Below are positions 1 to 10,476 of a stretch of DNA of 30,352 bases, one piece after another. Under the pieces are notes generated by a model. It did not search any database, was not told the DNA's origin, and saw nothing but the letters and a program-made list of their open reading frames with translations. Origin of the DNA: Betaproteobacteria bacterium (GTDB taxonomy: Bacteria; Pseudomonadota; Gammaproteobacteria; Burkholderiales; SG8-39). The DNA is taken from the NCBI GenBank assembly GCA_004298295.1, contig SCUH01000269.1, positions 1-30,352 of the forward strand. The letters run 5' to 3'. Each line of letters starts with the position of its first letter. Position 1 is the stretch's first letter. Made by a program: the position numbers and the translations under genes.

Positions 1-1275
1 GCGGTTGCGCAGCCGCTGCTCGCCGAGGTCCTCGACCGAGGCGTCGACGCCGCTCGCCAGCTGATCGCGCACCGGCGCGGAAACCACCGTCTCGCCGGGA
101 TTCGCCAGTTCGGCCAGGCCGGCCGCGACGTTCACCCCGTCGCCCAGCAGGTTGAAGGTTTCGACGATGACGTCGGCGAGGTGAATTCCGACGCGCAGCG
201 CGAGGGGCGGCGCGGTGGTCTCCGAGTTGAATCGCGCGAGGCTGCGTTGCAGCTCGAAGGCGCACTCGAGCGCATGAACGCCATCCGGAAAATCGGCGAC
301 CAGTTCGCCGCTCTGCAGCTTCGACAGGCTGCGGCCGGCGTTGGACGGAATCGCCTGCGCGTTGGCGTGCGCGAAAAACGCCCGCCAGCGCTGGATGGTG
401 CGTTCCTCGTCGCGCTCCATCATGGCCACGGCATCGAAGGCGACGGCGACGAGAATCGCGCGCCGCTCGCGCCGGGAGCGCACGCCCGTGCATCCAGTCG
501 GTTCGACTGAGGCGATCTCCTGAAACGGCAGTCGTTCGGGACGAGATTCCGCCGCCAGCTGCTCCAGTGCGGCCACGTCGCGCAGCACGAGGGCGCGGCC
601 GGCGCGCTCGAGCAAACCGTTGCGGACCAGACGGGAGAGTTCGCGCGTCACCTCCTCGCGGGACGTGCCCACATGGCTGGCGATCTCCCGATGCGTCGGC
701 GCGCGTTCGATGCGGGACATATTGGCCTGCACGCCCGCAAGCCGGGCGAGGCGCAGCAGCTCGAGCCAGACCCTGGCCTGCACGCGCTGGGCGCCGAGGT
801 CGATCAGGCGATCGGCCAGCTCGCGCACACTACCGCTCAGGCGGCGGAGCACGTGCTCGCGCACCGAGGCGTGATTCGCGAGGATGGCCCGAAACGCCTC
901 CGGCGGCAGCGACGCGAGCAGCGACTCGCGTGCCGCGACAACGTCGGCCATGTGGGTGCGGCCGTCGATGGCGGAATGTTCGCCGAACAATTCCCCAGCC
1001 GGCAGGTCCCGCAATATGATCTGGCGCCCGCGCCCGGCCGCAGCCGAAACGCGCACCATGCCGGCGATCACGAAATGAACGTCGCGATCCTCGCCGTCGC
1101 GCCGGATGACGTACTGGTTGCGCTTATAGCGCGTCCATTTGCACTGATCCGCGATCTCCCTGAGGGTGCGCGCGTCCAGCCCCTTCAGGATAGTGACCCT
1201 TTGCAGGCCGAGCACCGCCGAGGCGCGGATGGCGCGATTCTTGGTTGCGCCGCGGCGCTGCCGTGCGGTTGCCAT
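1..1275 (-). CDS. Crp/Fnr-family regulator (cNMP-binding domain + HTH) fused to a degenerate class III adenylate/guanylate cyclase-like domain; 3'-partial, runs off the left edge
   Basis: Manual translation gives a stop-free minus-strand frame from ATG 1275 to position 1 (425 codons), not listed in the ORF track. It contains a cNMP-binding region (VHFVIAGMVRV...GELFGEHSAIDG), a Crp HTH (PTHREIASHVGTSREEVTRELSRL) and cyclase-like motifs (LRVGIHLADV, LLGDGVNVAA, PGETVVS, EDLGEQRLRN). Confidence 0.88.
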   Translation of the reverse strand, partial: MATARQRRGATKNRAIRASAVLGLQRVTILKGLDARTLREIADQCKWTRYKRNQYVIRRDGEDRDVHFVIAGMVRVSAAAGRGRQIILRDLPAGELFGEHSAIDGRTHMADVVAARESLLASLPPEAFRAILANHASVREHVLRRLSGSVRELADRLIDLGAQRVQARVWLELLRLARLAGVQANMSRIERAPTHREIASHVGTSREEVTRELSRLVRNGLLERAGRALVLRDVAALEQLAAESRPERLPFQEIASVEPTGCTGVRSRRERRAILVAVAFDAVAMMERDEERTIQRWRAFFAHANAQAIPSNAGRSLSKLQSGELVADFPDGVHALECAFELQRSLARFNSETTAPPLALRVGIHLADVIVETFNLLGDGVNVAAGLAELANPGETVVSAPVRDQLASGVDASVEDLGEQRLRNR

Positions 1276-1576
1276 CAATTCGCCTTCGGCCGCTTCAATT
1301 CTGGAGGGTGTTGCGCACAGTCATGTCGTTCAGGTAGCCATGGGAAAGCGACCTGCCGATTCTAGACCGCTGCGACGGCCGCAATCGCCGCCACCTCGCA
1401 CGCGCGCACGCACTCCAGTATCAGACGCGCCACGCCCGCCAGCACCCATGCCGTCGCCGCCGTCTCCACAGTATCCGTCTCCCCGGAACGTGAGCGCTTG
1501 CGCTGCCGCGGGCATAGAATACCCCAATGGATCTGGGTTTCTGATCAGCGGCGCCGGATCGGATCGGGGGGTCACG

Positions 1577-2671
1577 ATGGCACAAGCGGTTTCGCATGAA
1601 CTTCTGCAGCGAATCCGGGACATCATCGCTGCGGAAACGGGCGTCGACCCTTCGCCCGAGGTCCTTGAGCGGCTGCAGGCCACCCTCGCCACCGCCCCGG
1701 ATCAGGCCGCAGCGACGCCGCCCGCCGCAGAGACCTCGAGCCGCGAAGTCACCGTCCTGCTCGCCGACCTGCGCGGCTTCAGCTCGATCTCCGAAGCCTA
1801 TCCGGTGGCGAAGGTGCTCGAGCTGCTCAACCGCTACCTCGGGCGCATGTGCGAGATCGCGGTGCGCAACGGCGGCACCATCGACAAGTTCATGGGCGAT
1901 TCGATCATGGTGCTGTTCGGCGCCCCGCAGCAGGGCGACGACGACGCACGGCGCGCCGTGACCTGCGCGGCGCAGATGCAGATCGCGATGGACGAGGTCA
2001 ACCGCGAGCACGCCGCGCTCAAGCTGCCGGAGCTCTTCATGGGCATCGGCATCAACACCGGCCGCGTCATGGCGGGGCTCCTCGGCTCCGAGCTGCATTC
2101 GGAGTACACGGTCATCGGCGACGAGGTGAACTTCGCCTCGCGCATCGAGACCTTCAGCCTGCGCGGCCAGGTGCTGGTGAGCGAGAGCACCTTCGAGCTC
2201 TGCCGCGGCTACGTCGCCACGGCCGCGCCGATGGACGTGCACGTCAAGGGCAAGTCCAAACCGGTGCGCCTGCACGAAGTGCTGGCGATCCCGTCCCTCG
2301 GCCTGCAGCTGCCGCGGCAGGAAGTGCGCAAGAGCCCGCGCGTCGAGGTGAGGATCCCGTTCACCTACCAGCCGGTGATCGACAAGATCGTGATGCCGCA
2401 GGTGCGCACCGGCGTGATCCTCGACCTGGGCTATCACGGCATCTTCGCCGAGGTCGAGCCGGGCCTGACGACCCATTCCGACATCCGCCTGGGCCTGGAT
2501 CTTTCGCTCGTCGGCGGCCGCGCCGACGATGTCTACGCCAAGGTGCTCGGCACGCACGCCAACAAGGGCCGCCACATGGCGAGCATGGAATTCACTTCGG
2601 TCAGCGTGCCGGGCAACGCCGCCATCCGGCAGTTCGTGCAGACGCTGATCCAGGGCAGCCCGACGAAGTAG
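1577..2671 (+). CDS. Class III adenylate cyclase with C-terminal PilZ domain
   Basis: Cyclase motifs are TVLLADLRGFS, IDKFMGDSIM, IGINTG and EYTVIGDEVNFASRIE. PilZ motifs are RKSPR (RxxxR) and DLGYHG 27 residues later. ATG 1577 is preferred over the track start at 1166, whose extension overlaps the divergent Crp gene. Confidence 0.88.
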   Translation: MAQAVSHELLQRIRDIIAAETGVDPSPEVLERLQATLATAPDQAAATPPAAETSSREVTVLLADLRGFSSISEAYPVAKVLELLNRYLGRMCEIAVRNGGTIDKFMGDSIMVLFGAPQQGDDDARRAVTCAAQMQIAMDEVNREHAALKLPELFMGIGINTGRVMAGLLGSELHSEYTVIGDEVNFASRIETFSLRGQVLVSESTFELCRGYVATAAPMDVHVKGKSKPVRLHEVLAIPSLGLQLPRQEVRKSPRVEVRIPFTYQPVIDKIVMPQVRTGVILDLGYHGIFAEVEPGLTTHSDIRLGLDLSLVGGRADDVYAKVLGTHANKGRHMASMEFTSVSVPGNAAIRQFVQTLIQGSPTK

Positions 2672-2701
2672 CGCGACACCGGGATTTGCGCGGCCGCGAT
2701 C

Positions 2702-2899
2702 TCAGTCCCGCTCGCGCGGCTGCGGGATCACGGTCTCCACCGGCTTGCCGTCGCGGTAGTAGGTGCGTTCCGCCTGGCGTGCCATCATGGTGAAGCGCCA
2801 CGCGTCATCCAGCCAGCGCAGCTTGGCGACCGCAGGCAGCGCGCTGTAATAAAGGATCTGCTCGTCGGTGCGCTCGTAACTGTAGTCGTAGCTGTCCAT
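2702..2899 (-). CDS. Small hypothetical protein (65 aa; alternative TTG start 2908), putative partner or antitoxin of the adjacent nucleotidyltransferase
   Basis: Starts at or overlapping the NTase stop codon. It has a plausible amphipathic helix (DEQILYYSALPAVAKLRWLDDAWRF). Confidence 0.6.
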   Translation of the reverse strand: MDSYDYSYERTDEQILYYSALPAVAKLRWLDDAWRFTMMARQAERTYYRDGKPVETVIPQPRERD

Positions 2900-2904
2900 T
2901 TCGC

Positions 2905-3414
2905 TCAATCGTCCCGTCGCCGGCTGCGCAACATCTCAAGCCGGTGGAGCGTCTCGATGTCGGAGCGGTCGATCTGCCGGCCGGTGCCGGATTTTAGCGC
3001 GATCAGATCCGGTACCGAGATCGCGGAAACATCGAAATCTTCCACCTTGAACGTCACCCGCCGCTCGTAGGCCGGCTCGAATGGCACTGCGGGCTTGACC
3101 AGCACATCGAGCGAGGGTCCATGGCCCTCGGCAGGTCGAAGCTGGAATGCAAGCATGTGCTTGTCCCGGATCCAGCTCTCCACTGTCGCCGCATCACAAA
3201 ATTGCTCCATCGTCACAAGCGGATTCGCCGGCTTGAGCTTCAATGGCCGGATTGCCGCGAGGAAGCGCTGCAGATTCTCCGCGTCCAGAGCGAGCATGAT
3301 GTCCACGTCCATGGTCATGCGCTCCGCGCCATGCAGATTGGCTGCGACGCCACCTACGACAAGGTAGCGCACCCGCTCCTGTGCCAGTAGCCGAAAAAGA
3401 TCGACGAAGAACAT
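2905..3414 (-). CDS. Nucleotidyltransferase-fold protein (DUF6036 / AbiEii-like)
   Basis: Has the GGVAANLHGAERMTMDVD motif (GG-x-A...R-x-T-x-D-x-D) and C-terminal LIALK...GR-x-x-D-x-x-D. An SD-like GGGAGG lies inside the rmuC 3' end. Confidence 0.8.
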   Translation of the reverse strand: MFFVDLFRLLAQERVRYLVVGGVAANLHGAERMTMDVDIMLALDAENLQRFLAAIRPLKLKPANPLVTMEQFCDAATVESWIRDKHMLAFQLRPAEGHGPSLDVLVKPAVPFEPAYERRVTFKVEDFDVSAISVPDLIALKSGTGRQIDRSDIETLHRLEMLRSRRRDD

Positions 3415-3417
3415 CCG

Positions 3418-4542
3418 CTAACCTCCCGGCTTGCGCTCGGCCTCCAGCCGCGCCACGTGCGGCGCGGCGGTCGGCTCCTCGATCTCGGCCGCCTCGATCC
3501 TCTGGAACTGCTGGCTGATCTTGTCGCCGGTGATCTGGATCTTTTCGGCGTCCTCGTGCGCCTGGCGGATGTGGTCGGCGAGCTTGCGGAGGCGCTCGTC
3601 GAAACGGCCGAACTCCACCGCGAGCCGCGCCAGCGCCTCCTTGATGACGTGGATCTGCTTGCGCGTCTCGACGTCCTTCAGCACGGCGCGCGCGGTGTTG
3701 AGCACCGCCATCAGCGTCGTCGGCGAGACGATCCAGACGCGCCGCGCCATCGCGTAGTCGACCACCTCGTAGTGGTAGGCGTGGATTTCGGCAAACACCG
3801 CTTCCGCCGGGACGAACATCACCGCGCCGTCCGAGGTTTCGTTGGCGATGATGTATTTCTTCGCGATGTCGTCGACGTGTTTCCTCACGTCCAGCCGGAA
3901 CTGCTTCTGCGCCAGCGAGCGATCGGCGTCGTTCGCCTCGCGCTCGAACATGCGGTTGTAGTTCTCCAGCGGAAATTTCGAATCGACGCAGACCAGGCCC
4001 GTGGGCGCGGGAAGCTTCAGCACGCAGTCGGCGCGCATGCCGTTGGACAGCGTGTACTGCATCTCGAAGGCGGCGGTGGGCAGGGTGTTGCGCACCAGCG
4101 CCTCGAGCTGCACTTCGCCGAAGGTGCCGCGCGTCTTCTTGTCGCCGAGCAGCTCCTGCAGCGACACCACGCTGCCGGTGAGGATCTCGATCTTCTTCTG
4201 CGCCTCGTCGATGGTCGCCAGCCGCTGCATGACGTTGACGAACGTGTCGTTGGTCTTGCGGAAACCCTCGTCGAGGCGCTCGTTGACGCGATGCGAGATC
4301 TGGTCGAGGCGGCTCGCCAGGCTCTCGCCGATCGAGAGCTCCAGCCGGTGCAGCGTGTCACGGGTGCGGTTCAATTCGTCCGACAGGCGCGCGGCCAGGC
4401 GGTCCGACTGCTGCGCGAGACCGCCGTGCAGGTCGAGCAGCATGTGGCGGTGCTTGTCTTCGAGGCTGCGGTGCGTGCGCAGCACCAGCCAGATCGCGAG
4501 ACCCAGGACGACCAGAGCGATGACGATCGCGGATTCAGCCAT
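3418..4542 (-). CDS. rmuC: DNA recombination protein RmuC
   Basis: N-terminal TM segment, coiled coil, and motifs KTRGTFGEVQLE, VDSKFPLENY and AVMFVPAEAVFAEI. Confidence 0.93.
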   Translation of the reverse strand: MAESAIVIALVVLGLAIWLVLRTHRSLEDKHRHMLLDLHGGLAQQSDRLAARLSDELNRTRDTLHRLELSIGESLASRLDQISHRVNERLDEGFRKTNDTFVNVMQRLATIDEAQKKIEILTGSVVSLQELLGDKKTRGTFGEVQLEALVRNTLPTAAFEMQYTLSNGMRADCVLKLPAPTGLVCVDSKFPLENYNRMFEREANDADRSLAQKQFRLDVRKHVDDIAKKYIIANETSDGAVMFVPAEAVFAEIHAYHYEVVDYAMARRVWIVSPTTLMAVLNTARAVLKDVETRKQIHVIKEALARLAVEFGRFDERLRKLADHIRQAHEDAEKIQITGDKISQQFQRIEAAEIEEPTAAPHVARLEAERKPGG

Positions 4543-4547
4543 GCCCG

Positions 4548-4553
4548 ATTCTA
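4548..4553 (-). promoter_or_regulatory. Putative sigma70 -10 box (TAGAAT) 5 nt before the rmuC ATG; probable leaderless transcript
   Basis: Minus strand reads TAGAAT-CGGGC-ATG, with no SD sequence. Confidence 0.55.
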
Positions 4554-4601
4554 TCGAGCGCGGCGCGCCACCGCTCCCGCGCGGCGTCCGGCCGCGGCGA
4601 A

Positions 4602-4615
4602 TTGACGCATATCAA
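4602..4615 (+). promoter_or_regulatory. FNR-type box upstream of the nap operon
   Basis: TTGAC-GCAT-ATCAA has one mismatch to TTGAT-N4-ATCAA. A -10-like TAGCAT at 4637-4642 puts the box centre near -41, which is class II geometry. Confidence 0.75.
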
Positions 4616-4662
4616 GAGGCCGATTTGCCGATGATCTAGCATTGGTGCGAAGCAACAACCTC

Positions 4663-4971
4663 ATGCGGGTCGCAGTGAAGCAATCCAGAAGAAGGTTCCT
4701 GATGCTCGGGGAGCCGGCCTCTGCGCAACTGCCCGCCACGGGATTCGCCCGCAGGGCGCGCATCAGCGAGCAATGCCTTGCCGCGCGCGGCATCGTGTGC
4801 CGCACCTGCGGCGGGCACTGCGAGCCACACGCGATCGGCTTCCGGCTGCTGCCGGCCGGGCGATCCTTTCCCCTCATCGACGACACGCGCTGCAACGCCT
4901 GCGGCGAGTGCGTGCGCGTCTGCCCGGCGCAAGCCGTTTCGCTGCACCTGATCGAGACCGCGCCGGCATGA
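4663..4971 (+). CDS. napF: Ferredoxin-type protein NapF, shortened (start uncertain: 4663 ATG or 4675 GTG)
   Basis: SRRRFL N-terminus and Cys motifs CLAARGIVCRTCGGHC and CNACGECVRVCP. It is the first gene of the nap operon. Confidence 0.75.
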   Translation: MRVAVKQSRRRFLMLGEPASAQLPATGFARRARISEQCLAARGIVCRTCGGHCEPHAIGFRLLPAGRSFPLIDDTRCNACGECVRVCPAQAVSLHLIETAPA

Positions 4972-5216
4972 ACATCTCCGGCATCGTGTTGCGCGCAAGT
5001 CCGGAGAACGCCGCCGGAGTGCGCGCCTCGGTCGCCGCGCTGCCCGGGGTCGAAGTGCATGCCGCGACCCATGACGGCCGGCTGGTGCTCACCCTCGAGG
5101 ACGCCGGCACCGCGAGCGCGGCGGACACCTTCGTGAAACTGCACGACATCCAGGGCGTGATGTCGGTGTCGATGATCTACCAGTATTCGGATGATTCGGG
5201 AATCCAGGAGGCTTGA
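4968..5216 (+). CDS. napD: NapD chaperone
   Basis: 82 aa (MNISGIVL...LPGVEVHA...GRLVLTLE...[10 protein letters not shown]), ATGA overlap with napF, directly before napA. Confidence 0.9.
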
Positions 5217-5218
5217 CC

Positions 5219-7708
5219 ATGAATCTCAGCAGACGCGATTTCATCAAGGCCAACGCCGCCACCGCGGCAGCCGCGGCAGCCGGCGTGACGCTGCCGGGCA
5301 CCGGGGTGCTCGCGCAGCCCAAGGATGACATCCGCTGGGACAAGGCGCCGTGCCGTTTCTGCGGCACCGGCTGCAGCGTGCTGGTAGGCACCAAGGACGG
5401 CCGCGTGGTCGCGACGCAGGGCGATCCGGATGCACCGGTCAACAAGGGTCTCAACTGCATCAAGGGCTACTTTCTCTCCAAGATCATGTACGGCGAGGAC
5501 CGCCTCAAGCAGCCGCTCCTGCGCATGAAGAACGGCAAATACGACAAGGCGGGCGAATTCACGCCGGTCAGCTGGAAGCAGGCCTTTGACCTCATGGCCG
5601 AGAAGTGGAAGGTGGCGCTCAAGGCCGACGGTCCTGCGGCGGTCGGCATGTTCGGCTCGGGCCAGTGGACCATCTGGGAGGGCTACGCCGCGGCGAAGCT
5701 CTACAAGGCGGGCTTCCGCTCCAACAACCTCGACCCGAACGCGCGCCACTGCATGGCGAGCGCGGTGGCGGGCTTCATGCGCACGTTCGGCATCGACGAA
5801 CCGATGGGCTGCTACGACGATCTCGAGCACGCCGACGCCTTCGTGCTCTGGGGCTCGAACATGGCCGAGATGCATCCCGTGCTGTGGTCGCGGCTGACCG
5901 ACCGCCGCCTCACCAACCCGAAGGTGAGAGTCGTCGTGCTCTCGACCTTCGAGCATCGCTCGTTCGAGCTGGCCGACCTGCCGATCATCTTCACGCCGCA
6001 GACCGACCTCGCGATCCTCAACTACATCGCGAACCACATCATCCAGTCGGGCAAGGTGAACCAGGACTTCGTCAAGAAGCACGTCAATTTCGCCGCCGGC
6101 GCGACGGACATCGGCTACGGCCTGCGGCCGGCGCACGCACTGGAGAAAGACGCCAAGGACCTCAAGGACACCAACGCCTCGAAACCGATCAGCTTCGACG
6201 AATACAGGAAGTTCGTCTCCGAGTACACCGCCGAAAAGGTTGCCAAGCTTTCGGGCGTTTCGGTCAAGGACTTGAAAACACTGGCAGAAATTTACGCTGA
6301 CCCCAAATTGAAGGTGGTGTCGTACTGGACGATGGGCTTCAACCAGCACACGCGCGGCACGTGGGTGAACAACCTCGTCTACAACGTGCACCTGCTGACC
6401 GGGAAGATTTCGGAGCCGGGCAACGGCCCGTTCTCGCTCACCGGGCAGCCTTCGGCCTGCGGCACGGCGCGCGAAGTGGGAACCTTTTCGCACCGCCTGC
6501 CCGCCGACATGGTGGTCACGAATCCGAAACACCGCGAGCTCACCGAAAAGCTGTGGCAGCTGCCCGAGGGCACGCTGCCCGACAAGATCGGTCTGCACGC
6601 GGTGGCGCAATCGCGCGCGCTGAAGGACGGCAAGCTCAAGTGCTACTGGACTTCGACCACCAACAACATGCAGGCCGGGCCGAACATCAACGGCGAGATC
6701 CTGCCGGGATGGCGCAACCCGGCGACCTTCGTGGTCGTGTCGGATGCCTATCCGACGGTGAGCGCGCTCGCCGCCGACCTGATCCTGCCCTCGGCCATGT
6801 GGGTGGAAAAGGAAGGCGCCTACGGCAACGCCGAGCGGCGCACCCAGTTCTGGCGCCAGATGGTCAAGGCGCCCGGCGAGTCGAAGTCCGACCTCTGGCA
6901 GTACCTCGAGTTCGCCAAGCGCTTCAAGGTCGAGGAGGTCTGGCCCGCCGAGCTGATCGCGAAGAAGCCCGCGTACAAGGGCAAGACGCTGTACGACGTC
7001 CTCTTTGCCAACGGCGTCGTCGACAGATTCAAGCTCAAGGAGCTGCCGAAAGATGGCTACATCAGCGAGGAGACGAAGGACTTCGGCTTCTATCCGCAGA
7101 AGGGCCTCTGGGAAGAGTACCGGCAGTTCGGCAGCGGCAAGGCGCATGACCTGGCCGAGTTCGATACGTATCACAAGGTGCGCGGTCTGCGCTGGCCGGT
7201 GGTCGACGGCAAGGAAACGCTCTGGCGCTTCAGGGAAGGCTACGACCCGTACGTGAAGAAGGGCGAGGGCTTGCGTTTCTACGGCAAGCCCGACGGCAAG
7301 GCCGTGATCTTCGCCTTGCCCTACCAGCCCGCGGCCGAGTCGCCCGACAAGGAGTACGACCTGTGGCTGTGCACCGGGCGCGTGCTGGAGCACTGGCACA
7401 CGGGTTCGATGACGCGACGCGTACCCGAGCTGTACCGCGCCTTCCCCGACGCGGTCGTGTTCATGCATCCCAACGACGCCCAGAAGCGCGGACTGCAGCG
7501 CGGTGTGGAAGCCAAGCTCGTTTCGCGGCGCGGCGAGATGATCGCGCGCATCGAGACGCGCGGCCGCAACAAGGTGCCCGAGGGCCTCGTGTTCGTGCCG
7601 TTCTTCGATGCCGGGCGGCTGGTCAACAAGCTCACGCTGGATGCCACCTGCCCGATCTCCCGTGAAACCGATTTCAAGAAATGCGCGGTGAGAATCACGA
7701 GGGTGTAG
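5219..7708 (+). CDS. napA: Periplasmic nitrate reductase catalytic subunit
   Basis: Tat signal SRRDFIK, [4Fe-4S] motif CRFCGTGC...C, Mo ligand [21 protein letters not shown] and C-terminal DFKKCAV. SD AGGAG precedes ATG 5219. Confidence 0.98.
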
Positions 7709-8437
7709 ATGGCCGCTCGCCGACAGATCCTGCAGGGGATGGCAGGCGCCGCGGGCTGCGCGGCACTCGCCGGCCTCGGCCTGGGACTGTATGCGCAGCA
7801 GACGCGCGCCTTGCCCGTGCGGGCGCTGCGCCCGCCGGGCGCGCAGCCCGAGGAAAAGTTTCTCGGCGCCTGCCTGCGCTGCGGCCTGTGCGTGCGCGCC
7901 TGTCCCTACAAGACGCTGCGCCTGGCGGAACTGGGCGACGGCGTGGTGAGCGGCACACCGTGGTTCACGGCGCGCAGGATCCCCTGCGAAATGTGCCCCG
8001 ACATTCCCTGCGTCAAGGCCTGTCCGAGCGGCGCGCTCGAGCCGTCGCTGCAAGACATCGACCGCGCGCGCATGGGGCTCGCCGTGATCGTCGACCAGGA
8101 AAACTGCCTCAATTACCAGGGGCTGCGCTGCGACGTCTGCTACCGGGTCTGCCCGCTGATCGGCAAGGCGATCACGCTCGAGCTGCGCCACAACGAGCGA
8201 ACCGGCAAGCACGCGATGTTCATCCCGACGGTGAATTCGAATCACTGCACCGGCTGCGGCAAGTGCGAGCGCGCCTGTGTGCTCGAGGAAGCCGCGATCA
8301 AGGTGCTGCCGCTGAAGCAGGCCAAGGGCGAACTGGGCCGGCACTACCGCCTCGGCTGGAAGGAAAAGGAAAAGGCCGGCCGGGCGCTCGGACCCGAAGC
8401 GCTCGAATTTCCGATCCGCAGGCCTGAACAGCGATGA
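7709..8437 (+). CDS. napG: Ferredoxin-type protein NapG
   Basis: LRPPGA motif and four Cys cluster motifs ([27 protein letters not shown]...[19 protein letters not shown]). Confidence 0.95.
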
Positions 8438-9309
8438 GCCGCGCCGAAGCCGCGCTGCACCCGCCGCACGCGCCCGCCGCCGCCGCAGTCGCCGCCAAGG
8501 GCCTGTTGCGCGCGCACCGGTGGCTCCTGCTGCGGCGCACGTCGCAGTTCGCGGCGCTCGCGCTGTTCCTCGCCGGGCCGCTCGCCGGGATCTGGATCGT
8601 GAAGGGCAATCTCGCCTCGAGCCTCACGCTCGAAGTGCTCCCCTTGAGCGATCCCTACGCGGTGCTGCAGGGCCTCGCGGCAGGCCACCTCATGGCGGCG
8701 AGCGCGCTCACCGGGGCCGCGATCATGGCGGTGTTCTACGCCATCGCCGGCGGCCGCGCGTACTGCGCGTGGGTCTGCCCTGTGAATGTCGTCACCGACA
8801 CCGCAGCGTGGCTGCGCCGCAGGCTCGGACTGCGTCCGGACATTTCGCTGCCGCGCGCCACGCGCCAGTGGCTGCTCGGCGCGACCCTTGCGCTGGCCGC
8901 CGCCACCGGCGCGATCGTCTGGGAATGGGTCAATCCGGTCTCGATGCTGCATCGCGGGCTGATCTTCGGCTTCGGCCTCGCCTGGGCGGTGGTGCTCGCG
9001 GTTTTCGTCCTCGACCTGCTCGTGTCGGCGCGCGCCTGGTGCGGGCATCTCTGCCCGATGGGCGCGTTCTATGCGCTCCTCGGCAGCGGCGCCCTGCTGC
9101 GCGTGTCGGCGCGCTCGTCCTCGCGCTGCGACGATTGCCTCGACTGCTATCGCGCCTGCCCCGAACCGCAGGTGATCCAGCCCGCGCTCAAGGGCTTGGC
9201 GAGCCCCGTCATCGGCTCGGCCGCGTGCACCAACTGCGGCCGCTGCATCGACGTCTGCAGCCAGGACGTGTTCCGCTTCGCCATCCGCTTCGACCAGAGA
9301 AGGGACTGA
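8434..9309 (+). CDS. napH: Quinol dehydrogenase membrane subunit NapH
   Basis: TM helices, CAWVCP and CGHLCP motifs, and two C-terminal CxxCxxCxxxC motifs. Confidence 0.95.
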
Positions 9310-9311
9310 TC

Positions 9312-9788
9312 ATGAACGCTTTCCGCATTGTGCTTTGTCTCGCCGCCGCGGTTGTGCTCGCCGCCGCAGGCGCCGTGCGCGCGCAGACGCAGCCGGCGGT
9401 CGGCAAGGTCGACCTCAAGACCGGCGACGTGGTGCCGATCGAGGCCACCTCGCGCGCCGACTCGTTTCGCAACGCGCGCGACCGCGAGCCCTATGCGCGC
9501 GATTTCGTGCAGCAGCCGCCGCTGATCCCGCACACCGTCAAGGGCTACAACATCACGGCCAACTTCAACAAGTGCATGGATTGCCACGCCTGGTCGCGCA
9601 CGCCGGAGTCCGGCGCCACCAAGGTGAGCCAGTCGCACTTCAAGGACCGCGATGGCCGCGAGCTCTCCAACATTTCGCCGCGGCGCTACTTCTGCCTGCA
9701 GTGCCACGTCTCTCAGGTCGAGGCCCCGCCGCTGGTCAACAACACCTTCAAGCCGCTGCCGTCGATGAAGCAGGCGCCCGCGAAGTAG
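9312..9788 (+). CDS. napB: Diheme cytochrome c NapB
   Basis: Signal peptide from ATG 9312, QQPPLIPH, and heme motifs CMDCH and CLQCH. Confidence 0.95.
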
Positions 9789-9798
9789 GGACCGCACC

Positions 9799-10389
9799 AT
9801 GCAAACACCACGCAGCGGCCTCGCCGCGCGCATCCGCAGCCTCGGGCCCTGGACCGCGCTCCTGATCTTCGCCGCGGGAATCGTCTTCTGGGGCGGCTTC
9901 AACTGGACGCTCGAGCTCACCAATACCGAGGCCTTCTGCACCGCGTGCCACGAGATGAAGGTGAACGTCTTCAAGGAGTACCAGAACACGATGCACTACT
10001 CCAACCGCACCGGCGTGCGCGCCACCTGCCCGGACTGCCACGTGCCGCGCGAGTGGGTGCACAAGGTGGCGCGCAAGATCCGCGCCAGCAACGAAGTGTT
10101 CCACTGGGCGCTCGGCTCGATCGACACGCCGGAGAAGTTCAACGCCGTGCGCCGCAGGCTGGCGCAACTCGAATGGGCGCGCATGAAGGCGAACGATTCG
10201 CACGAGTGCCGCAACTGCCACGCCTACGACTACATGGACTACTCGGAGCAGGGACGGCGCGCCGTGGCCCAGCATACGAAGGGCTTTGCCGAGAAGAAAA
10301 CCTGCATCGACTGCCACAAGGGCGTGGCGCACTCGCTGCCGCCCATGGAGCAGAACATCGGCGCGCCCAGGGTGGCGCAGGCCGACTGA
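9799..10389 (+). CDS. napC: Tetraheme membrane cytochrome c NapC (NapC/NirT family)
   Basis: N-terminal TM segment and four CxxCH motifs (CTACH, CPDCH, CRNCH, CIDCH). Confidence 0.95.
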
Positions 10390-10395
10390 GGAAAT

Positions 10396-10469
10396 GGGGT
10401 CAGAGCAACTTCAAGGGGATGGCGAAGCAGGGGAACGGGGTCGTGGAAGTTACTCTGACCCCGTTCCCC
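10396..10469. repeat. REP-like palindromic element with overlapping inverted repeats between convergent napC and amtB; possible bidirectional terminator
   Basis: The 17-nt arms 10396-10412 (GGGGTCAGAGCAACTTC) and 10446-10462 (GAAGTTACTCTGACCCC) pair with 1 mismatch. The 13-nt arms 10430-10442 and 10457-10469 pair perfectly. Confidence 0.75.
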
Positions 10470-10476
10470 GGTTCGC

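Follow-up and report, generated by a model that had tools for sequence, protein, structure and literature searches.

Cross-talk between the second messengers cyclic di-GMP (c-di-GMP) and cyclic AMP (cAMP) is well documented physiologically. In Pseudomonas aeruginosa, for example, high c-di-GMP lowers cAMP-Vfr signalling. Among the closest described systems, the linked Xanthomonas genes XC_0250/XC_0249 place a class III cyclic GMP (cGMP) cyclase next to a GGDEF protein that binds a cyclic mononucleotide (cNMP) (PMC3770947), and Bd1971 of Bdellovibrio is a cAMP-sensing EAL protein (PMC6717892). PilZ domains have been reviewed in fusions that join them to REC, GGDEF, EAL, HD-GYP, MCP, CheC, BcsA and Alg44, and no class III cyclase is among these partners (10.1101/814665). 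The stretch of DNA analyzed here (the window) spans bases 1–30,352 of contig C354 in a betaproteobacterial assembly (2.3 Mb in 361 contigs, 81% complete). It opens with two divergent genes. Gene B encodes a class III cyclase that carries a PilZ domain at its C terminus; we read it, with modest confidence, as an autonomous c-di-GMP-controlled adenylate cyclase. Gene A fuses a Crp/Fnr-type regulator to a degenerate cyclase homology domain.

The original prediction described two divergent genes about 300 bp apart, each with a class III cyclase homology domain: one catalytically complete and ending in a PilZ tail, the other degenerate and placed behind a cNMP-binding domain and a Crp helix-turn-helix (HTH). 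All of this is confirmed by the coordinates, the domain matches, the 301-bp spacer and the catalytic residues detailed below.

Catalytic Domain of Gene B

Gene B starts with an ATG at 1577, immediately preceded by GGGGGG, and its product counts 364 amino acids (aa), while that of its relatives counts 360–366. An alternative, longer open reading frame (ORF), starting at 1166, would overlap gene A. Conservation was followed in 27 relatives (56–90% identity) and in 80 species-level genome loci (43–62% identity).

The catalytic domain is recognized as Guanylate_cyc (Pfam E 3.8e-25) and aligns end to end with those of Cya2 (2w01, E 1.7e-46), CyaB (3r5g, E 8.5e-36) and CyaC (1wc0). The metal-binding Asp residues D64 and D108, the specificity residue K104, N185 and R189 are invariant in 27/27 relatives, and D182 is nearly so. 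Across the species-level loci, D64, K104 and D108 are each present in 80/80, N185 in 79/80 and R189 in 78/80; at position 182, 79/80 have D (49 loci), E (23) or N (7). The protein thus carries the full set of class III features: two metal Asp, the transition-state Asn and Arg, the Lys/Asp specificity pair and the cyclase fold. In a Foldseek search, the AlphaFold2 (AF2) model of gene B, whose confidence is moderate in the cyclase part, retrieved 2w01, 1wc1 and 3r5g at a probability of 1.00.

A Lys/Asp pair denotes adenylate-type specificity in class III cyclases. As K104 is invariant, gene B most likely encodes an adenylate cyclase. Of the solved structures, the one that matches it best is that of the guanylate cyclase Cya2, which would fit a product other than cAMP, either cGMP or another cyclic nucleotide. 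However, Cya2 has a Glu at the position equivalent to K104, and the engineered Cya2 of entry 6fht, titled adenylate/guanylate cyclase, has a Lys there. Together with the invariance of K104, the Asp, Glu or Asn at position 182 makes an adenylate-type pair, and a different product is hardly to be expected.

PilZ Domain of Gene B

The PilZ match scores above the Pfam gathering threshold (E 1.8e-5, 25.5 bits vs. a cut-off of 22.5). Directly past the last catalytic-domain strand, the linker carries an RxxxR motif (R251-K-S-P-R255), both arginines of which are invariant in 80/80 loci. The second motif reads D-L-G-Y-H-G in gene B and takes the form [D/N]-h-[G/S]-Y-x-G in the family, with the Tyr and the final Gly each kept in 79/80. 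In the refined consensus of c-di-GMP-binding PilZ domains, this second motif is [D/N]hSxxG (10.1101/814665). At the Ser position, the 80 loci have Gly in 52 cases and Ser in 27; the Asp/Asn position is kept in 74/80 and is Val in 6/80. Across the tree, loci with Ser and loci with Gly are interspersed and nothing else changes with them, so the Gly seems to be tolerated. It is the main caveat on the predicted c-di-GMP binding.

The AF2 model has a mean predicted local distance difference test score (pLDDT) of 70.8, with values of 84–94 for residues 260–350. Its PilZ part forms the six-stranded beta-barrel (strands within 255–341) followed by the C-terminal helix (344–359) that characterize the fold. 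The structures matched by Foldseek include the PilZ domain of BcsA (4i86, template modelling (TM) score 0.74) and a c-di-GMP-bound Pseudomonas PilZ (4xrn, TM 0.73); YcgR, MrkH and VCA0042 were matched as well. Residues 1–50 are modelled as two helices, and the PilZ domain is the sole recognizable regulatory domain of the protein.

A PilZ tail that no longer binds c-di-GMP, and instead mediates protein contacts or has a structural role, as happens in some PilZ proteins, would account for the Gly in motif 2, for the Val found in six loci and for the modest Pfam score. It would account less easily for an RxxxR kept in every locus, for a Tyr and a final Gly lost in one locus each, and for Ser and Gly forms that alternate while nothing else is altered; moreover, the fold fits c-di-GMP-bound PilZ structures. 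We consider such a tail rather improbable. The proposal that c-di-GMP gates cAMP synthesis, made in the original prediction, would thus be the best reading of gene B in terms of conservation, given the invariant RxxxR, the PilZ fold and the Lys/Asp pair.

The cyclase-PilZ family is large. A word-index search gave 3209 matches, and species-level genomes gave at least 594. Among the carriers are the cultured strains Acidovorax delafieldii DSM 64, Acidovorax sp. Leaf191 and Curvibacter gracilis ATCC BAA-807, as well as Usitatibacter, Thiodiazotropha, Porticoccaceae, Desulfobacterales and Planctomycetota. Among the open-access papers and bioRxiv preprints searched, none was found that deals with either architecture, the class III cyclase-PilZ fusion or the Crp-cyclase one.

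Intergenic Region

The box GGCATAGAATA lies 56 nt 5' of the gene B ATG. An alignment of the spacers shows it to be conserved in the window, in the sister genome G008 and in the related loci L089 and L006, whether the gene upstream is the fusion or a GGDEF gene. This independence from the upstream gene indicates that gene B would have its own promoter.

Other signals were sought in the same region. No CRP box (TGTGA-N6-TCACA, up to three mismatches) is present in 1276–1576, and the whole window has fewer matches than shuffled sequences. No inverted repeats were detected in 1250–1600, an Rfam scan of 1–3500, c-di-GMP riboswitches included, gave no match at E ≤ 1, and a sigma-70 scan of the 301-bp spacer yielded nothing useful. 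Nor was a remnant of a GGDEF gene found in this spacer by tblastn or by a hidden Markov model scan.

Gene A, a Crp-Type Head on a Degenerate Cyclase

Gene A, whose ATG occupies 1273–1275, is incomplete, as the contig begins at its codon 425, a point missing from the original prediction. Its full-length relatives measure 848–850 aa and continue beyond the cyclase domain with a TolB-like region (JGI name) and TPR repeats. The Pfam profile Guanylate_cyc matches the cyclase part below threshold (E 0.013), and the NCBIfam LipJ-cyclase profile matches it at 2.5e-11. The cyclase-like domain of a full-length relative is nearest to PDB entry 3mr7 (1.6e-20), followed by Ma1120 and Rv1900c.

In the family alignment, V278 and G323 occupy the positions of the first and second metal Asp and G386 that of the catalytic Arg, while K319, D379 and N382 are retained. 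As both metal Asp and the catalytic Arg are replaced, the domain is predicted to be catalytically dead on its own. The more distant fusions P0125–P0131 (67–72% identical) retain D, D and R, and the loss would therefore be recent and specific to the clade of the window.

Class III cyclase domains act as dimers, and the residues retained by gene A recall a C2-type partner: K319, D379 and N382 are kept and the C1-type metal aspartates are missing. The dead domain could, in principle, pair with the catalytic domain of its neighbor as C2 does with C1, and inhibit it, tether it or complete one active site; the adjacency of the genes fits this idea. However, the C2-type Arg is gone as well (G386) in the window, L089, L107, G010 and G011, and gene B has a complete residue set that needs no partner. 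The two domains also belong to different subgroups, gene B being close to Cya2/CyaB with a long arm and gene A to 3mr7/Ma1120/Rv1900c with a short one. The distant fusions that keep both Asp and the Arg point to a domain that began as an ordinary homodimeric one, Crp heads dimerize and would favor homodimers of gene A, and the pairing of the genes is not conserved (see below). Docking of the two proteins is therefore considered very unlikely.

The N-terminal part of gene A has the Crp/Fnr layout, with a cNMP-type barrel and, C-terminal to it, an HTH. The phosphate-binding cassette reads FGEHSAIDGRTHMAD and departs from that of cAMP-binding CRP proteins. G98-E99 are kept, and H108-M109 stand at the canonical Arg-Ser/Thr positions in the alignment to GlxR and M. 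tuberculosis CRP. In the fusion family, these positions are R/H/S/G and then F/M/I/L. Since the Arg-Ser/Thr pair is replaced by H-M and is variable across the family, cAMP binding by gene A is uncertain, and so is the earlier suggestion that the neighboring regulator reads cAMP. The recognition-helix residues R206, E207 and R211, which we take to correspond to R180, E181 and R185 of Escherichia coli CRP, are invariant in the family.

The fusion is rare. One full-length match (P0243, 848 aa) was found among 1.84 billion 50%-identity representatives; the other top matches are cyclase-TolB-like-TPR proteins of ~590–610 aa (6570 matches at E ≤ 1e-30). This body is common: at E ≤ 1e-30, more than 6,000 such proteins align with fusion residues 262–849, and the genomes of this family have up to six bodies each. 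In P0307, P0304 and P0358, the same body has an N-terminal BTAD head (SARP-type activator) in place of the Crp head. As both heads are seen on it, the cyclase-TolB-like-TPR body is a regulator chassis compatible with more than one kind of DNA-binding module.

Conservation of the Gene Pair

The divergent pair is kept in the window, in G008, in L107 (cyclase 82% identical) and in L089 (76%). In L006 (74%) the pair is also present, with a gene for a 281-aa membrane GGDEF protein inserted between its members. With 12 cyclase-domain matches in 2.3 Mb, the adjacency of two cyclase-domain genes by chance is estimated at ~1% per gene; given this estimate and the recurrence of the arrangement in four further loci, the adjacency exceeds the chance expectation.

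Outside these loci, the genes go separate ways. None of the 80 wider species-level cyclase-PilZ loci has a Crp fusion within 8 kb. The fusion is also missing from 5/10 close loci: L093 (76%), with GGDEF upstream and GGDEF-EAL downstream of the cyclase; L091 and L108 (70–73%), with CysG upstream; L109 (69%); and L110 (68%), with a dCache-PAS-GGDEF-EAL gene upstream. Conversely, the fusion loci L094 and L096 have different upstream genes, share EamA and DUF6065 downstream, and have no cyclase-PilZ gene nearby. Three genomes of the same genus (G010, G011 and G005) have the two genes on separate contigs: the cyclase lies among housekeeping genes, and the fusion neighbors a glycosyltransferase in G010 and a cytidylate-kinase-like gene in G011. 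In a maximum-likelihood tree of 91 cyclase-PilZ sequences, all five paired cases fall in one clade of eight rows, together with three unpaired ones; the copies of G010, G011 and G005 fall in another clade. When three genes on each side were clustered over the 80 species-level loci, no signalling partner was conserved beside the cyclase-PilZ gene, the top clusters being an aminotransferase (14/80), TctC, a hybrid kinase and an amidohydrolase.

As only a handful of close relatives keep it, the pairing is a lineage-specific arrangement and not a conserved two-gene module. Of the self-contained module that had been proposed, the divergent pair is real and recurs in four more loci, but it is confined to one small clade; the conserved neighborhood expected of a module was found neither in the species-level loci nor in half of the close ones, and same-genus genomes split the genes across contigs.

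The two genes could nevertheless be retained as one pathway, with c-di-GMP setting the activity of gene B, the resulting cAMP being read by gene A and transcription changing in response, all this without contact between the proteins. The five paired loci, the invariant recognition helix and the distribution within the genus (both genes in five genomes, neither detected in six and the cyclase alone in one incomplete genome) speak for this. Co-occurrence of this kind is compatible with a functional link and equally with shared descent, as these kin are not independent. Furthermore, the 80 wider loci and L091, L093, L108, L109 and L110 do without the fusion, while L094, L096, G010 and G011 have the fusion without a cyclase nearby. 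The cAMP pocket has H-M in place of Arg-Ser/Thr, at positions that vary in the family, the spacer has no CRP box within three mismatches, and at least three other Crp/Fnr-type proteins of the genome could read cAMP. Such a pathway is a tentative option, on the unlikely side.

Two further arrangements of the fusion were observed. In L094, a stand-alone Crp-family gene of 235 aa (6297–7004) overlaps by 4 nt the start of a 707-aa fusion (7001–9124) and may be a tandem duplicate of the fusion head. In G010 (L097:4909-7257), the fusion lies divergently to the gene of a 782-aa protein that contains glycosyltransferase domains of family 4.

c-di-GMP Enzymes in the Neighborhood

The source assembly encodes at least 14 GGDEF, 10 EAL, 12 class III cyclase and 3 PilZ domains. 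In 6/11 distinct close or same-genus loci, the cyclase-PilZ gene has a GGDEF or EAL gene no more than 2 kb away. In the 80 wider loci, such genes are adjacent in 2/80 and within 8 kb in 8/80, which is about background by a rough estimate; only the close clade is therefore enriched.

A more far-reaching reading is a local circuit in this lineage, in which a membrane diguanylate cyclase encoded nearby supplies the PilZ domain, the cyclase makes cAMP, and the regulator reads the nucleotide and holds the enzyme by cyclase-cyclase contact. If true, c-di-GMP would be hard-wired through cAMP to transcription, in a relay with no known precedent; we regard it as very unlikely.

In three relatives, a small membrane GGDEF protein (280–292 aa, with GGEEF and an RxxD site) is encoded beside the cyclase-PilZ gene, at a different position in each (L006:5005-5850, L089:8109-8951 and L093:5967-6845). 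A 60%-identical copy is present on another contig of the source genome (G000:C35:4274-5098), flanked by transglutaminase-like and glycerate-kinase-like genes. At two other places of the source genome (G000:C98:3249-5232 and G000:C290:4180-7616), a class III cyclase domain has a domain of the GGDEF or GGDEF-EAL type within 1–2 kb.

Proposed Mechanism

From domain content, residue conservation, fold and gene neighborhoods, we infer c-di-GMP binding, ATP as the substrate, allostery and independence of the two genes. The gene B product would be a cytoplasmic, homodimeric class III adenylate cyclase with the C-terminal PilZ domain as its sole recognizable regulatory element. Binding of c-di-GMP to the RxxxR linker and the PilZ barrel would alter the packing of the two catalytic domains, and this altered packing would switch cAMP synthesis. 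Gene B would in this way act as an autonomous c-di-GMP-to-cAMP converter under its own promoter.

Gene A would be a separate transcription factor, a Crp/Fnr-type head with an intact DNA-binding helix on a cyclase-TolB-like-TPR body, in which the dead cyclase domain is probably a dimerization or nucleotide-sensing scaffold. The back-to-back position of the genes would have arisen in one small lineage, and could stem from joint regulation or some loose link in function, but the genes are not an obligatory two-gene module.

Several observations weigh against autonomous control of gene B by c-di-GMP. The nearest solved catalytic domain, that of Cya2, belongs to a guanylate cyclase. The Gly that replaces the consensus Ser of motif 2, in gene B as in 52/80 loci, could weaken or change c-di-GMP binding by the PilZ domain. 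Finally, the pairing is kept in five loci with cyclases down to 74% identical to gene B, and the genomes of the genus carry both genes (5) or neither detected (6), which leaves room for a real functional link.

Layout and Assembly of the Locus

The features of the locus are collected in Table 1. The G+C content of the DNA is 63–73%, and the close homologues are labelled as Burkholderiales or Betaproteobacteria metagenome-assembled genomes.

Table 1. Positions of the two divergent genes, their domains and the spacer in the window.
Feature	Position	Strand	Basis
Gene A, codons 1–425: regulator of Crp/Fnr type with a degenerate cyclase homology domain attached	1..1275	-	Pfam, NCBIfam, relatives
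Gene A, degenerate class III cyclase homology domain, cut near its end	1..492	-	Pfam, NCBIfam, PDB, family alignment
Gene A, Crp-type HTH	556..774	-	Pfam HTH_Crp_2 3.5e-13
Gene A, cNMP-binding-like domain	871..1131	-	Pfam cNMP_binding 2.2e-16; alignment to GlxR and M. tuberculosis CRP; family alignment
Divergent spacer, 301 bp	1276..1576	.	Pattern and Rfam scans
GGCATAGAATA box with TAGAAT, a -10-like hexamer, at 1515-1520	1511..1521	+	Spacer alignment
Gene B, cyclase-PilZ	1577..2671	+	Pfam, alignments, AF2, Foldseek
Gene B, catalytic cyclase domain (D64, K104, D108, D182, N185, R189, K224)	1736..2260	+	
Gene B, PilZ domain; R251-K-S-P-R255 at 2327-2341, D283-L-G-Y-H-G288 at 2423-2440	2324..2638	+	

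The 3' remainder of gene A was not found elsewhere in the source assembly. In the sister genome G008, the fusion gene is broken at the same codon (C378:1), and its residues 388–849 begin contig C424 (1–1389); in L107, the sequence runs unbroken across the codon-425 break point. In all, three independent assemblies (the window, G008 and the end of G005:C216) split inside the fusion gene, two of them exactly at codon 425, and the second G008 piece, on C424, overlaps the first by 38 codons. Such breaks point to a stretch in the fusion gene that varies between strains or resembles a repeat, and so splits the assembly graph.

Downstream of gene B, between it and rmuC, a 169-aa nucleotidyltransferase (Pfam DUF6036, AbiEii-like) and a small ORF upstream of it occupy 2702–3414. 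L107 has the same pair (65 aa and 169 aa). The G008 sister locus (93% identical) does without it, rmuC beginning 10 nt past the cyclase gene; the pair looks like a small mobile insertion. Between rmuC and amt, the window has ~6 kb extra (~4550–10470), including a molybdopterin oxidoreductase gene (5213–7708, + strand). In G008, the ammonium transporter and P-II genes directly follow rmuC.

Comparison with Known Systems

Gene B shares its metal, transition-state and arm elements with Cya2 of Synechocystis (2w01) and CyaB of P. aeruginosa (3r5g). Neither of these has a PilZ domain; Cya2, with its Glu at the specificity position, makes cGMP, and CyaB is membrane-bound. In its tail, gene B resembles BcsA, Alg44, YcgR and MapZ, which have the canonical PilZ barrel and C-terminal helix preceded by RxxxR in the linker, and its PilZ fold fits 4i86, 4p00, 4xrn and 5y6f. 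The logic of these effectors is alike: c-di-GMP binds to the PilZ domain, and an attached or bound activity changes. For gene B, the output would instead be a second messenger, cAMP, and motif 2 has Gly for Ser.

Residues 24–238 of the fusion align with GlxR of Corynebacterium and CRP of M. tuberculosis (3r6s, 3h3u and 3i54, E ~2e-20), with which it shares the cNMP-type barrel, the C-helix and an HTH with R-E-x-x-x-R. It differs from them in the Arg-Thr pair, which is H-M in the window and R-F in the majority of the family, and in the ~600 more residues after the HTH. Another cyclase-domain transcription regulator is Rv0386 of M. tuberculosis, with a cyclase-ATPase-TPR-LuxR HTH architecture (see also PMC3466318). 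Compared with the cyclase-TolB-like-TPR proteins of ~590–610 aa, a Crp/Fnr head on that body is found in only one 50%-identity cluster, and in the clade of the window the cyclase domain would be catalytically dead. The Crp-headed protein is thus a rare variant of a common, unstudied regulator body, and shows that Crp or BTAD heads are acquired.

In the mammalian C1/C2 adenylyl cyclases and in soluble guanylyl cyclase, one partner is without the metal Asp and keeps the base and transition-state residues, which is partly the case of gene A. In contrast to these pseudo-heterodimers, gene B is complete alone, gene A has also lost the Arg, and the domains are separate proteins of different cyclase subgroups.

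The Xanthomonas and Bdellovibrio systems share with the mechanism proposed for gene B a direct wiring between a cyclic mononucleotide and c-di-GMP. They run the other way: in them, c-di-GMP turnover is under the control of the mononucleotide, whereas c-di-GMP would here control mononucleotide synthesis. A cyclase with PilZ as its sole regulatory domain would be a one-protein link from c-di-GMP to a mononucleotide, opposite to the direct links described in the papers searched, and, as it belongs to a large conserved family with cultured members, the idea is open to ordinary biochemistry.

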